A DNA stretch of 58,299 nucleotides from Candidatus Eiseniibacteriota bacterium (lineage in GTDB: Bacteria; Patescibacteriota; Microgenomatia; Levybacterales; UBA12049). Positions 1,229-10,728 of this stretch are shown here, piece by piece; the stretch's first letter is position 1; every line of letters starts with the position of its first letter. The stretch spans positions 1-58,299 of the forward strand of contig DASQJJ010000051.1 in NCBI GenBank assembly GCA_035631115.1, in the 5' to 3' direction. Position numbers and translations under genes: made by a program. The notes beneath the pieces are model-generated. The model was not told the origin of the DNA, did not search any database, and saw nothing but the letters and a program-made list of their open reading frames with translations.

Positions 1229-1933
1229 ATGAATCAATATGTTGTTGGCCATAGGGGTGCTGCAGGACTTGCTCCAGAAAATACAATTAAAGCTTTTAAG
1301 ATAGGCTGCGAGAATAATGCTGACGTAGTAGAATGCGATATTCATCTTACTAAGGACGGGAAGCTTGTTGTCTTTCACGATGGCACTTTGGATAGAACGA
1401 CAAATGGCAAAGGATGGGTAAAAGACTATACCTTTGCTGAGTTACGAGAATTAAATGCTGGGGATGGAGAAAAAATACCAACACTTGAGGAAGTTATTGA
1501 GACAGTTATGGATTATAAGAAAAAACTTATTATCGAAATAAAAGCAGAGGATGAAATTATTGCGAAAAATCTAACCAACGCATTTTGCACTTTTCTTTCA
1601 GAGCATACCGAGATAATTCCCAATATTTACGTGCATTCTTTTTGGCATCATGTTGTAAAAGAAGTAAAGGAAAAATTTCCAGATGTATCAACATTTGTCC
1701 TCATGATGATTGGACTACCTCCTAAGGAAATGCTTCAATTTATTCTTGATGCAAAGGCAAACGGGGCATCCATAGAGCAGGATTATATTTCCCCAGAGTT
1801 GGTAAGGCTTGCCCATGAGAATAATCTAGAACTTAATGCTTGGCTACTTAATAATGAGAATGAATTTAAGAGAATGAAGGATTTAGGAGTGGATGGGTTA
1901 ATTACTAATTTCCCCGATAGATTTCACTTATAA
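1229..1933 (+). CDS. glycerophosphodiester phosphodiesterase family protein
   Basis: GHRGAAGLAPENTIKAF...ECDIHLTKDGKLVVFHDGTLDRTTNGKG are GDPD-family motifs. Confidence 0.75.
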   Translation: MNQYVVGHRGAAGLAPENTIKAFKIGCENNADVVECDIHLTKDGKLVVFHDGTLDRTTNGKGWVKDYTFAELRELNAGDGEKIPTLEEVIETVMDYKKKLIIEIKAEDEIIAKNLTNAFCTFLSEHTEIIPNIYVHSFWHHVVKEVKEKFPDVSTFVLMMIGLPPKEMLQFILDAKANGASIEQDYISPELVRLAHENNLELNAWLLNNENEFKRMKDLGVDGLITNFPDRFHL

Positions 1934-3163
1934 ATTTTCTCCAACAACTGCGCGGAATTCTCGAATTGCAGTAACTTTTACTTCTCCAGGAATTGCAAGA
2001 GATGCACTTATTTCATCCCGTAATTTTTTGGCAATAATAATTGTCTGAGCATCATCTAATTTTCCAGGATTTATAATAACACGTAATTCTCTCCCTGCTT
2101 CAAATGCATAGGCATCTTCTACGCCTTCATACTTTTTCGCCATATCTTCCATTTCCTTCAGTCTATTGGCATATTTTTCTACATCTTCATACCGTGCTCC
2201 TGGTCTACCACCACTTGCTTGGTCTGCAATATGTACAATGACTGATTCAACACTAGTAAATGGTTTATCCTCGTGGTGCTGTGCAACAGTATCAATGATG
2301 GCATCTGGAAGACCAAATCTTTTTAATACTTCTACGCCCAACTTTACATGACTTCCTTCTCCTTCTACAACTTTTCCAATATCATGGAGAAGTCCTCCAA
2401 GTCGTACTACATCGGCATCTGCACCGATTTCTTGTGCAATGCCAACGGCAATTTTACTTACTTCTAGAGAATGGGTAATAAGATTTTGTCCATATGATGT
2501 ACGGAACTTAAATCTTCCAAGCATTTTAATAAGGTCTACTGGCAACTTAAATACTCCTGCCTCATGAGCCAACTGCTCACCTTCCTGAAACATAATTTTA
2601 TCCAACTCTGCTTTTGTCTGATTAACAACTTCTTCAATTCTAAAAGGTTGAATGCGGGTATCCTTAAGAAGTACCTCGAGTGCACGTCTGGCAATTTCGC
2701 GGCGTACACTATCGAAAGATGAGAGACGAATAATTCCTTCTTCGTCCAAATCGATATCTACTCCTGTTGCGCTTTCGAATGCACGAATGTTGCGTCCTTC
2801 TTTTCCAATAATTCTTCCCTTAACATCTTCACTTTCTACACGAATAATAGAAACAGTAAATTCTGCAACATAATTAATTGCACCGTGCCGCATTGCCTCT
2901 ACAATTACTTCTTGTGCTTTTTTGTCTGCAGTCCTCTTTGCTTCTTCTTCTCTTTCGCGGATAAGTTTGGCAACACTTGATGCCTCGGATTTTTCTGTCT
3001 CATCAAGAAGCGCTTTCTTTGCTTCTTCCTCTGTCATGTGGGAGAGTTTTTGGAGCTTGTCTCTATATTCTTCTTTTTGCTTGTCTAAGCTTTCTTTTAA
3101 CTCGTCTAATTTTTCCTGTTTTTCAAGGAGTTTTTTTTCTAAATCTAATGCGTCTGATACCAT
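1928..3163 (-). CDS. rny: ribonuclease Y (short form, no N-terminal membrane anchor)
   Basis: Coiled-coil N-terminus, KH domain (GRIIGKEGRNIRAFE) and HD domain (LLHDIGK...AQHHED). An in-frame stop lies just upstream of 3163. Confidence 0.85.
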   Translation of the reverse strand: MVSDALDLEKKLLEKQEKLDELKESLDKQKEEYRDKLQKLSHMTEEEAKKALLDETEKSEASSVAKLIREREEEAKRTADKKAQEVIVEAMRHGAINYVAEFTVSIIRVESEDVKGRIIGKEGRNIRAFESATGVDIDLDEEGIIRLSSFDSVRREIARRALEVLLKDTRIQPFRIEEVVNQTKAELDKIMFQEGEQLAHEAGVFKLPVDLIKMLGRFKFRTSYGQNLITHSLEVSKIAVGIAQEIGADADVVRLGGLLHDIGKVVEGEGSHVKLGVEVLKRFGLPDAIIDTVAQHHEDKPFTSVESVIVHIADQASGGRPGARYEDVEKYANRLKEMEDMAKKYEGVEDAYAFEAGRELRVIINPGKLDDAQTIIIAKKLRDEISASLAIPGEVKVTAIREFRAVVGENL

Positions 3164-5956: not shown

Positions 5957-6027
5957 CGGGGACTAGTTTAACGGTAGAATGCGCGGCTGGGGGTCGTGCG
6001 GCTGGGGTTCGACTCCCCGGTCCCCGA
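5957..6027 (+). tRNA. tRNA-Pro (anticodon GGG)
   Basis: Hand-drawn cloverleaf. Acceptor stem is CGGGGAC/GTCCCCG. Anticodon stem is CGCGG/TCGTG with two G-U pairs. Loop CTGGGGG puts GGG at 5989..5991. T arm is TGGGG-TTCGACT-CCCCG, the discriminator is A, and no CCA is encoded. Confidence 0.8.
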
Positions 6028-6277
6028 CTTATGGTAGAAAATTTAATTCATCAAGAACGAGAAATTAATAGAGACCTTGTAAGAAGAAAGAGCAACTCTT
6101 GTTGCCCATATGCAGCAAGCACATGGTGGGAGACGTGCAACAGCTTGCCATAATTGTATGCTTTATAGCGCAACTATAGAAGCAATAACATATCAACTTG
6201 CAAGGGTACGAAAAGAACTCAAAAAATATCAACAATAACAAAGTGTTCTCCAGGAAATATCAAAAAGAGGCGAATTT

Positions 6278-9100: not shown

Positions 9101-9871
9101 CTAATAGCCTACAAAGTAAGTAACTTTTGCTTTTTTCTGTAAGTCTGCGACAAATGTTTGGGTTTTTTCCTGTAATTGTTGTTGCTCCAATTGAGTTTTT
9201 ATTTGTTTTCGTAAATCTTCTTCAGACAAATCTTGTGGAAGACTATCTTGGTTTTTATCGATGTACGCTTGCACATCATCATCGGTTACTTTTACCGATG
9301 CACCAACCATTTTATCAAGCATTTTTTGTAATTTTATTTGGTCTGTTAAATCCTTTTGTGTAAGACCACGAGCTGCGAGTGCATCTTGCAATGTTACTCC
9401 CTGTCCTTTTAGTTGGTCTTCAATTTTTTTAATTTCGCTATCTACATCTGCTTGACTTACACTAACTCCTCTTTTTTGTGCTTCTTGAAAAACAAGAGTC
9501 TGCACAACTAAATTACCAAGAGTCTGTTTACCATTTTGTTTTTCTAATTGATTTACTACCTCTAGTCTACTAATAGGTTGTCCATTAACAACTGCTGCCA
9601 CAAATAATCCTTTGCATGCATATACCAATACTGCCAATACAACAACTGTTACACCAACCCATAATCGTGGATTTTTAAGGTATGTCTGTTGCACAGTTGC
9701 GGTTGTTGATGGTGTTGATGAAGAATTTTTTTGTGATGCTCTACTACTTTGTGTTTTTCTTGCTAGAGCTGGACGCGTCGATCGTGATGGTGTTGTGCGT
9801 GCTGCTAATACAACTGGAGTTTTTCGTGATGCGAGTTTTCTTATTGAAGTTGCCTTCTTTCGTTCTGCCAT
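9101..9871 (-). CDS. SurA N-terminal-domain (chaperone/PPIase-associated) membrane protein
   Basis: Basic S/T/R-rich N-terminus, one TM, then VNGQPISRLEVVNQLEKQNGKQTLGNLV...VTDDDVQAYIDKN, which is SurA_N-like. Confidence 0.6.
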   Translation of the reverse strand: MAERKKATSIRKLASRKTPVVLAARTTPSRSTRPALARKTQSSRASQKNSSSTPSTTATVQQTYLKNPRLWVGVTVVVLAVLVYACKGLFVAAVVNGQPISRLEVVNQLEKQNGKQTLGNLVVQTLVFQEAQKRGVSVSQADVDSEIKKIEDQLKGQGVTLQDALAARGLTQKDLTDQIKLQKMLDKMVGASVKVTDDDVQAYIDKNQDSLPQDLSEEDLRKQIKTQLEQQQLQEKTQTFVADLQKKAKVTYFVGY

Positions 9872-9959
9872 AGGGATTATTATAACATCAGTTTTATTCT
9901 TCGCAAGGGGTCAAAACGAATTCAAATAGAAGTCCAAGAGTTTTTACTATACTCTTAAT

Positions 9960-9988
9960 TTGACAAAAAAAATAAATTATTTTATAAT
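9960..9988 (+). promoter_or_regulatory. consensus sigma70-type promoter TTGACA-N17-TATAAT
   Basis: TTGACA at 9960..9965, an exact 17-nt spacer, then TATAAT at 9983..9988. Confidence 0.55.
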
Positions 9989-9994
9989 AACTTT

Positions 9995-10103
9995 CATGAC
10001 AAGCAGACAAGCAATGATGGCTATGATGATGACCTCCTTAAGTGGGGCTGTTTCGTAGTATTCATTTTTGCCTTACGAACACCCCGCTAAGCGGGGTTTT
10101 TTT
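9995..10103 (+). ncRNA. candidate ~108-nt transcript: sRNA or leader with a Met-rich 20-codon ORF (9996..10058)
   Basis: Bounded by the consensus promoter and an intrinsic terminator. The ORF reads MTSRQAMMAMMMTSLSGAVS. ACCTCCTTA at 10032..10040 equals the 16S rRNA 3'-end (anti-SD) sequence. Confidence 0.35.
10082..10103 (+). terminator. rho-independent terminator
   Basis: CCCCGC-TAA-GCGGGG hairpin followed by TTTTTTT. Confidence 0.7.
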
Positions 10104-10132
10104 GTGGCATACAGAGTAAAAAATATTCAATG

Positions 10133-10212
10133 ATCTCCTTCTCCTTTTGGGAGAAGGTAGGGATGAGGGGAAGCCCTCACCTCAATCCTCTCCCGTGACC
10201 AGGCGAGGAAGA
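10133..10212. repeat. GC-rich double-hairpin element (CTTCTCC-TTTT-GGGAGAAG; GAGGGG-AAG-CCCTC)
   Basis: A local GC-rich island in an AT-rich spacer with two adjacent stem-loops. It resembles widespread GGGAGAGG-type intergenic hairpin repeats. Confidence 0.4.
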
Positions 10213-10251
10213 TCAAGGTTAAGTTACTAATATGGAAAGGAGGTGACATAT

Positions 10252-10440
10252 ATGTCAGAACCAAAAACGAGATACGACTTTAATTTACTTTTACCACCAG
10301 CGCCAGGAAATGGAAAACAAACGCGGTTTCGAGGAGAGAATGTTTCTAGAGAATTTACTTCTGCGGCTATACAGGTTTTTGCTAACGAAGTACTAGCTCG
10401 CAGACGAGAACAAGCGCAACAACCTAAGCGAGAAGAATAA
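10252..10440 (+). CDS. hypothetical small protein (62 aa)
   Basis: AAAGGAGGTGA Shine-Dalgarno lies 8 nt upstream of ATG 10252, which is preferred over track GTG 10243. Confidence 0.5.
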   Translation: MSEPKTRYDFNLLLPPAPGNGKQTRFRGENVSREFTSAAIQVFANEVLARRREQAQQPKREE

Positions 10441-10488
10441 AACCTTTGAAAAAAAATTAGGAAAATTAGCTTGTGATATACTCACAAT

Positions 10489-10728
10489 ATGGCTGATGTT
10501 TTATCGGGTGTATATAAACACTATAAAGGAAAATTTTACCTTGTCTTAGGTGTTGCAAGGCATACTGAGACAGAAGAAAAATTTGTTGTTTATGTTCCGT
10601 TGTATGCAAGGGAAGGACCACGAATGTCTTTAAGACCATTCGAGATGTTTTTTGAAGACGTAGAGGTTAATGGCAAAAAACAAAAAAGATTTGAATATAT
10701 TGGGTCTGAAATGCCAGAGGAAGCTTAG
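10489..10728 (+). CDS. DUF1653-like protein
   Basis: YKHYKGKFYLVLGVARHTETEEKFVVYVPLY...RPFEMF. TATACT lies 6 nt upstream of the ATG. Confidence 0.6.
   Translation: MADVLSGVYKHYKGKFYLVLGVARHTETEEKFVVYVPLYAREGPRMSLRPFEMFFEDVEVNGKKQKRFEYIGSEMPEEA

Follow-up and report, generated by a model that had tools for sequence, protein, structure and literature searches.

Methionine-codon leaders with alternative RNA hairpins in a clade of Patescibacteria: probable transcription attenuators

What is the role of a short transcription unit which combines a perfect promoter, a twenty-codon open reading frame (ORF) rich in methionine and an intrinsic terminator, directly before a small gene? The question is raised by positions 9960-10103 of a 58,299-nucleotide stretch of Patescibacteria DNA (contig DASQJJ010000051.1, assembly GCA_035631115.1), the whole of which is referred to here as the window. 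The original prediction for this locus described a self-contained unit and offered three readings: a small RNA (sRNA) that titrates Shine-Dalgarno (SD) sequences, an anti-SD that masks the SD of the next gene in cis, or a leader peptide with an attenuator. The last of these is supported by conservation, by alternative RNA structures and by the presence of methionine-producing genes downstream in relatives. We consider it probable, with good though incomplete confidence, that the element is a ribosome-mediated (leader-peptide) transcription attenuator which reports the supply of charged elongator Met-tRNA.

The leader and its family

The promoter is of the sigma-70 type (TTGACA-N17-TATAAT, 9960..9988, plus strand). 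It agrees with the consensus at 12 of 12 positions and is the single perfect match in the 58 kb window, where 0.05 would be expected by chance; the earlier claim that it is the best promoter of the window thus holds. Seven nucleotides past the -10 box, and without an SD, the ATG at 9996 opens the leader ORF (MTSRQAMMAMMMTSLSGAVS, 9996..10058, plus strand), which comprises 20 codons followed by TAG (10056-10058). Frame and spacing are as first described, but the count of seven methionine codons is not, as six are present (positions 1, 7, 8, 10, 11 and 12). Five of these fall in codons 7-12, and the resulting run (ATG ATG GCT ATG ATG ATG, 10014..10031, plus strand), which forms part of the 1:2 helix discussed below, follows a pattern, ATGATGNNNATGATGATG, found once in the window against an expectation of 0.02. 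The terminator (10081-10103, plus strand) had been read correctly from the letters: CCCCGC (10082-10087), TAA, GCGGGG (10091-10096) and T7 (10097-10103) give a stem of seven pairs, six of them G-C, with a 3-nt loop and U7. As a class, terminator-like sites are not enriched in this region (3 against 2.8 expected), and the weight of this one therefore lies in its position and conservation.

Since the ATG follows the -10 box by 7 nt and lacks an SD, translation of the leader ORF would be leaderless or nearly so. Such a start fits the genome of the window, because similar ones are common there: by a crude count, about 16 of the 67 putative window genes have a TAnnnT box 5-10 nt 5' of the ATG and no SD, several of them being the first genes of operons. 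Internal operon genes in the window carry AGGAGG-type SDs. Examples of starts with a -10-type box (TATAAT, TATACT or TATAGT) and no SD are found at 9871, 29080, 30517, 34920, 42826 and 44516 on the minus strand, and at 10489, 36769 and 37136 on the plus strand. The pattern suggests that leaderless mRNAs are widespread in this Patescibacteria genome.

The leader is not unique to the window. In a first comparison, in which the intergenic region was aligned by blastn with 80 syntenic loci of species-representative genomes, positions 10013-10109 (from the Met run to the terminator) proved 72-81% identical to intergenic DNA of three loci (L005, L007 and L008), whose SurA-like proteins, encoded beside the leader, share only 56-60% identity with that of the window. 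A covariance model was built from these four sequences, and contigs encoding closer SurA-like proteins were added; two further loci, L213 and L214, were reached through an exhaustive protein search with orf62, the small gene which follows the leader in the window. In all, the window and related Patescibacteria contigs yielded 12 distinct leaders, each occupying the same genomic slot. Eight copies of a long form score 60-107 bits with the covariance model and two of a short form 26-30 bits; the model gave no further match in approximately 930 kb of other loci.

The encoded peptides are MTSRQAMMAMMMTSLSGAVS in the window, MTQKQAMMAMMMTPLRGAVS in L205 and L214, MTQKQAMMAMMMTSLRGAVS in L213, MNKLSAKMMAMMMTPLRGNSL in L007, MIHEQIMMTMMMSSLRGSSL in L008, MVLSNKTMTAMMMSPFREVLS in L005, MTSTRKMMTMMMTPFGEVS in the first leader of L206 (L206a), MIRKQSIMSMMMTSLREVLS in L210 and L211, MKIQNITMTMMILLERGTSL in the second leader of L206 (L206b), MTRAIYLSFMMMTS in L207, MTRAISLSFMMMSSL in L212 and MITRFMRMTNYPL in L208. 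All 12 retain the reading frame, the Met run and a stop codon in frame, and clustered Met codons are the sole feature that the peptides have in common. The terminator is present in every copy. A TTGACA -35 box and a TATAnT -10 box recur at the equivalent position in relatives: 11 of the 12 leaders have TTGACA, a spacer of 17-18 nt, TATAnT and an ATG 6-10 nt further on, with no SD, L206a being less clear.

Two members depart from the common arrangement. The second leader of L206 (2596-2707, minus strand; MKIQNITMTMMILLERGTSL and a terminator) is internal to the operon, lacks a separate promoter and stands 5' of a 101-aa ORF that has an SD. As the leader ORF starts 1 nt past the stop codon of the preceding methyltransferase gene, translational coupling is suggested, and L206b appears to be an internal attenuator fed in this way. 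The diverged leader of L208 (MITRFMRMTNYPL, 2139-2228, minus strand) retains the layout of alternative helices (1:2, 2:3 and 3:4) and the genomic slot, and precedes a different cargo gene.

Alternative hairpins and the pyrimidine box

Four segments can be delimited in the window, all on the plus strand. Segment 1 (10020-10037) consists of part of the Met run together with CCUCC (10033-10037) and pairs with segment 2 (10042-10059), which reads GUGGGG followed by UGUUUCGUAGU. Segment 2 contains the leader stop codon and can pair with either segment 1 or segment 3 (10074-10087; UACGAACA and CCCCGC), the latter serving the terminator as its 5' arm and the antiterminator as its 3' half. Segment 4 (10091..10103) comprises GCGGGG (10091-10096), the 3' arm of the terminator, and U7. 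The geometry is that of an attenuator, with the Met run in the 1:2 helix and the UAG at 10056-10058 inside segment 2.

Support for the 1:2 helix and the terminator (3:4) comes from covariation. RNAalifold, applied to the first four sequences, returned the terminator and a long hairpin in which the Met run and CCUCC pair with GGGG...UUCGUAG. Across the ten sequences aligned by the model, 90% of the cells in these two helices are paired, against approximately 50% when the partners are slid by 1-3 columns; seven pairs have changed on both sides, and none of 500 shuffles reached the observed percentage paired or covariation score. The terminator occurs in two forms linked by compensatory changes (CCCCGC/GCGGGG to CCUCCC/GGGAGG). 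Segment 2 follows the form of the terminator (GNGGGG or GGGAGG), as does segment 1 (CCUCC-like or CUCCC-like), and this joint change is what would be expected if the 1:2, 2:3 and 3:4 pairings all mattered.

The 2:3 helix was assessed by folding each sequence separately, in place of column-wise covariation. In the window this hairpin has a free energy of -18.0 kcal/mol (z = -3.1), the terminator hairpin one of -12.3 kcal/mol. In isolation, the 2:3 hairpins of all 11 folded copies range from -12.8 to -19.9 kcal/mol (z from -1.5 to -5.1) and are stronger than the terminators (-8.8 to -12.4 kcal/mol), so that every copy has the capacity to form this helix. It is kept in three subfamilies in which the pairing sequences are unrelated, namely UGUUUCGUA/UACGAACA, GGUUGUCUCUU/AAGACAACC and GGAGGUAUUUUG/CAAAAUAUACCUCC.

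Folding was repeated with a mask standing for the ribosome, which forced bases to stay unpaired over an assumed footprint extending 15 nt 5' and 11 nt 3' of the first base of the A-site codon. All 11 leaders formed the terminator when the mask was placed at the stop codon. When the A site was moved to the run's first internal Met codon, none of the 11 did, and the 2:3 hairpin appeared instead. Without a ribosome the terminator formed in 8 of the 11. The mutually exclusive terminator and antiterminator that the original prediction had proposed to look for are thus present in the folds; the pairing between anti-SD and SD which it had placed beside them is absent from folds of 9994-10260.

That pairing concerns the nonamer ACCTCCTTA (10032-10040, plus strand), which is identical to the 3' end of 16S rRNA and had been singled out as its mimic. 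The nonamer is present as described, but its identity to the 16S terminus is not beyond chance: it occurs twice in the window against 0.44 expected, a number equalled by 11 of 100 shuffles. The box also differs in every relative, where the position is occupied by ACTCCTTTG, ACCTCTTTG, ACTCCTCTG, TCCTCTTTG, TCTCCCTTC, ACCCCCTTT or ACTTCCCTT, the first two belonging to the closest relatives. In all predicted folds it is paired rather than exposed, and it changes together with its G-rich partners. Judged from these comparisons, the supposed mimic is the pyrimidine arm (1b) of segment 1 of the switch, varying with compensating changes. Pairing with the G-rich segment 2, itself a mimic of segment 4, requires a CU-rich box; likeness to an anti-SD, and complementarity to any SD, therefore follow.

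These observations bear on two of the original readings. One holds that the terminated RNA of approximately 108 nt is a stand-alone, trans-acting sRNA which pairs with the SDs of other mRNAs through its CCUCC box. Such an RNA would be expected to accumulate when methionine is plentiful, segment 1 is CU-rich in every family member, and attenuator-derived RNAs can act in trans, as is reported for rnTrpL of Sinorhizobium (PMC6614838). However, the seed of this putative sRNA occurs at chance frequency and is not conserved even in the closest relatives, the box lies inside helices and co-varies with intramolecular partners, and complementarity to an SD is a trivial property of every CU-rich arm. 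We regard a dedicated sRNA as highly improbable.

The other reading places the action in cis: in the read-through RNA, ACCUCCUUA would pair with AAGGAGGU at 10237-10244 and mask the translation of orf62. The complementarity of the box to AAGGAGGT at 10237..10244, over 8 nt, is indeed present, and segment 1 would be free once the ribosome had left an antiterminated leader. Yet both the minimum free energy and the centroid folds of 9994-10260 pair the box locally and leave the SD at 10237 without it. In L213 and L214 the SD is unchanged while the box is different, which weakens the match, and in the seven loci with a methyltransferase gene no such SD follows. In the window itself an insertion has altered the spacing between box and SD and has left the leader intact. 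Masking in cis accordingly appears very improbable to us. As the box is unconserved, at chance frequency and equivalent to segment 1 of the switch, both readings go unsupported, and a leader-peptide attenuator remains the preferred explanation.

The insertion is a GC-richer stretch of 107 nt (10127..10233, plus strand) in the 5' untranslated region of the read-through transcript, between the terminator and the SD of orf62, with AATAT direct repeats on both sides. It can form a long, imperfect hairpin (-42.6 kcal/mol, z = -3.0) and looks like a small palindromic mobile element or one similar to repetitive extragenic palindromic (REP) sequences, although a search of the window and of the loci collected before L213 and L214 gave no second copy. 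It is absent from its position in these two, where the SD of orf62 comes approximately 20-30 nt past the terminator. By this comparison the insertion is lineage-specific and outside the conserved switch. The same close spacing in the two relatives indicates that the unit is not self-contained, as had been claimed, but the 5' leader of an operon.

Genes behind the leader

In seven loci (L005, L007, L008, L206, L207, L210/L211 and L212) the gene next to the leader encodes a homocysteine S-methyltransferase (PF02574, E 3e-43), of 340 aa where complete; the contig end cuts the gene in L207, L211 and L212. Its best solved relatives are betaine-homocysteine methyltransferases (BHMT; E 2e-52), and on this sequence evidence the BHMT-like protein is a methionine-producing enzyme. 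The diverged leader of L208 is followed by a protein of 262 aa with a SAM_HAT_C domain (1342-2127, minus strand; 31.4 bits against a cut-off of 25.5), and then by a DUF1653 gene. Proteins of the SAM_HAT family cleave S-adenosylmethionine (SAM) to adenosine and methionine. The assignment of the L208 protein is a match to one C-terminal domain in Pfam, and no sequence relative was found in the PDB at E <= 0.01.

The BHMT-like genes of L005, L008, L206, L207, L210 and L212 have no separate SD. The sole purine-rich stretch there is the 3' arm of the terminator (GGGAGG or GCGGGG), 9-16 nt before the ATG. In the models only the antiterminated fold leaves this arm unpaired. The arm might also serve as a ribosome-binding site, although the spacing is irregular.

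The methionine link also bears on whether the leader ORF encodes a functional Met-rich micropeptide, with hairpins that are merely its terminator. The frame is kept in 12 copies, as such a peptide would require. The N-terminal part of the peptide, however, varies freely, its tail is shortened to MMMTS* or MMMSSL* in two loci, and the codons of the tail coincide with RNA helices; moreover, a conserved alternative hairpin that consumes one arm of the terminator has no role in making a micropeptide, and the recurrence of Met enzymes downstream would go unexplained. We give this possibility hardly any credence.

In the window, L213 and L214 the leader is followed by orf62 (a protein of 62-66 aa) and then by DUF1653, with an extra 63-codon ORF between them in L214. 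As predicted, orf62 (10252..10440, plus strand) is a small gene led by an SD: it opens with the ATG at 10252, runs for 62 codons and has a strong SD, AAAGGAGGT (10236..10244, plus strand), with the AAGGAGGT core at 10237-10244 and an equivalent SD context in both relatives. A first, k-mer-indexed protein search with orf62 returned no homologue; an exhaustive HMMER search among 1.8 billion representatives later gave two (63% and 51% identity), both directly behind a leader of this family. The invariant residues of this small conserved protein fit EP..RYDF.L..PP.PG, and it matches no family in Pfam or NCBIfam. An AlphaFold model (AF2) shows a beta-hairpin and a long helix at low confidence (mean pLDDT 68), too weak a model for a fold search.

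The DUF1653 gene (10489..10728, plus strand; Pfam E 3.5e-23) has a TATACT box 6 nt before its ATG. Its place in the gene order is kept in L213, L214 and L208, and in L213 and L214, as in the window, TATACT precedes the ATG by 6-7 nt. The gene is probably served by a separate promoter, and its dependence on the attenuator may be only partial.

Could the leader of the window be a relic, left behind after the loss of a homocysteine methyltransferase and no longer regulatory? Most family members precede a BHMT-like gene, the window has none, and the DNA downstream of its leader carries the insertion. But the order of leader, orf62 and DUF1653 is kept in three species, and the leaders of these three (the window, L213 and L214) are 89-95% identical in DNA, far above the approximately 72% of orf62. 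Constraint on the leader is therefore stronger than on the gene behind it, which argues against a relic, as do the perfect consensus of the promoter, the four intact segments and a modelled switch that works. Decay of this kind seems to us very unlikely, and we retain the reading of a functional attenuator.

Further small ORFs of 63-128 aa, without a Pfam family, follow the leader-controlled gene in L007 (1321-1635, minus strand), L206 (2276-2578, minus strand), L210 (1566-1949, minus strand) and L214 (605-793, plus strand). Those of L007 and L206 are 69% identical to each other, the former following the methyltransferase and the latter being the 101-aa ORF behind the second leader of L206; the others are unrelated.

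The wider window includes rpoB/C, ribosomal protein operons and the SurA-like gene (9101-9871, minus strand), which is transcribed divergently from the leader and itself has a TATAAT-7-ATG start. The leader is flanked by this gene on one side and by the end of an rpoA-rplQ-rplM-rpsI operon on the other, and the plus-strand genes 3' of it are orf62 and DUF1653. The relatives of the SurA-like gene belong without exception to the Patescibacteria, mostly labelled Microgenomates or Levybacteria. Many metagenome-assembled genomes with clear Patescibacteria-type loci (L005, L006, L008 and others) are publicly titled 'uncultured Gammaproteobacteria bacterium', which is probably a labelling artefact of submission. 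The only RNA gene that Rfam or ARAGORN detected in the window is a tRNA-Pro (GGG) at 5957-6028, and at gathering scores the leader matches no Rfam family.

A proposed switch, its difficulties and its precedents

We infer that the switch operates as follows. Transcription would start approximately 7 nt past the -10 box, at or beside the A of the ATG at 9996, and a ribosome would translate the 20-codon ORF while RNA polymerase was still transcribing the leader. With Met-tRNA plentiful, the ribosome would clear the five Met codons of the run (codons 7-12) and arrive at the UAG (10056-10058). Its position there, inside segment 2, would keep segment 2 from pairing with segment 3; segments 3 and 4 would form the CCCCGC/GCGGGG-U7 terminator, and an RNA of approximately 108 nt would be released. 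With Met-tRNA scarce, the ribosome would stall at the beginning of the Met run and cover segment 1, freeing segment 2 (10042-10059) to pair with segment 3 (10074-10087). The terminator would thereby be blocked, and polymerase would read through into orf62 (10252-10440) and possibly DUF1653.

Several observations weigh against this account. Firstly, counting pairs column by column did not set the 2:3 helix apart from controls, the alignment used being in register with the 1:2 fold alone. Secondly, 3 of the 11 leaders favour the antiterminated fold as free RNA, and under the assumed footprint a ribosome at the last two Met codons (11 and 12) still permits the terminator in the window, L007, L005 and L206b; the model therefore needs a stall early in the Met run. 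Thirdly, a shortage of methionine also limits the charging of initiator tRNA and should reduce initiation on the leader itself, which complicates any simple trp-like logic. Fourthly, tblastn found neither a homocysteine methyltransferase gene nor a remnant of one in the 58 kb window, and orf62, the gene under control there, has no known link to methionine. Finally, all members of the family found so far belong to one narrow clade. Metagenomes scanned with ATGAYGRCNATGATGATGWC gave at least 120 matching stretches, of which the 80 loci listed were chance matches, mostly to eukaryotic coding DNA rich in ATG and GAT, with no match to the covariance model; and a search for RNA runs containing the window sequence found none, the hits being DNA soil metagenomes only.

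Known attenuators offer both likenesses and differences. The trpL, hisL, leuL, thrL, pheL and ilv leaders of the Proteobacteria (RF00513, RF00514, RF00512, RF00506 and RF01859) similarly combine a short ORF rich in the sensed codon, four segments with 1:2, 2:3 and 3:4 pairings, a stop codon placed to block the antiterminator and a terminator before a biosynthetic gene. The present family differs from them in its presumed sensing of methionine, in having no SD before the ORF, in its Patescibacteria host and in the genes under its control (a BHMT-like enzyme, a SAM_HAT-domain protein or an orphan small protein), and shares no sequence homology with them. In a permissive Rfam scan (9850-10500, E <= 10) the best match, to Trp_leader (RF00513), scored 24.1 bits where the family's gathering score is 41, and it owes this score to the terminator. 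The scan assigned the leader to no family, and neither T-box nor SAM families matched.

Comparable in form are the leuL, trpL and ilvL leaders of the Actinobacteria (Streptomyces and Corynebacterium; PMC8079986, PMC1262725), in which an SD-less ORF lies at the 5' end of the transcript and is followed by hairpins, although the phylum is different and there is no sequence similarity. Leader peptides reported from this phylum concern Leu, Trp, Ile/Val, Ala, Thr and Cys (PMC8079986, PMC1262725), and no conserved RNA structure was seen upstream of its methionine operons (PMC1262725). One tentative case is metL, upstream of metNIQ in Streptomyces lividans, put forward as a Met-dependent, leaderless leader peptide (PMC8079986). 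It (MSTTSDRTPATEATTTPGARCMCRRMCAF) has two scattered internal Met codons and, according to its authors, no typical terminator (PMC8079986), whereas in the present leaders 3-5 Met codons form a run, the terminator is strong and an antiterminator is conserved in 12 copies. According to Naville and Gautheret (2010), no leader peptide had been demonstrated beyond the Proteobacteria and Actinobacteria until their own cases from the Firmicutes.

At the RNA level, methionine is otherwise sensed by T-boxes and SAM riboswitches. Like the proposed attenuator, the Met T-box (for instance that of the Staphylococcus aureus metICFE-mdh operon; PMC3771891) and the SAM riboswitches terminate transcription of Met-pathway genes prematurely when supply is adequate, and the T-box likewise reads tRNA charging. 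However, these elements bind tRNA or SAM directly, without translation, while the window leader is modelled as dependent on translation; with approximately 70 nt from the Met run to the terminator, it is also too short to be either. In the open-access literature, the methionine control that we found proceeds through SAM riboswitches, T-boxes or protein repressors, and no established Met leader-peptide attenuator was found there, the tentative metL excepted. A search of the same literature on riboswitches, attenuation and leader peptides in Patescibacteria listed no paper mentioning the phylum, and searches on DUF1653 and on leaderless translation in the Candidate Phyla Radiation (CPR) gave nothing decisive. 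Control of methionine by leader-peptide attenuation in uncultured Patescibacteria thus seems to be undescribed.

We lean, if only slightly, towards regarding these leaders as an undescribed class of attenuator, leaderless and sensing methionine through runs of AUG, so far confined to one clade of Patescibacteria (CPR), and controlling an orphan protein of 62-66 aa in the window and two relatives. Were this so, that small protein, and perhaps DUF1653, would be marked as part of the cellular response to a shortage of Met-tRNA, and tight coupling of transcription and translation would be implied in these reduced bacteria. An attenuator built on Met codons would add to the sensed amino acids the one whose codon is also the start codon, and raises the question of how the demands of initiation and elongation are kept apart. 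The leaders would add a family of cis-regulatory RNA for the CPR/Patescibacteria. They may, in addition, serve as a functional tag, predicting that the BHMT-like and SAM_HAT-like proteins, orf62 and several small ORFs would be induced when methionine runs short.

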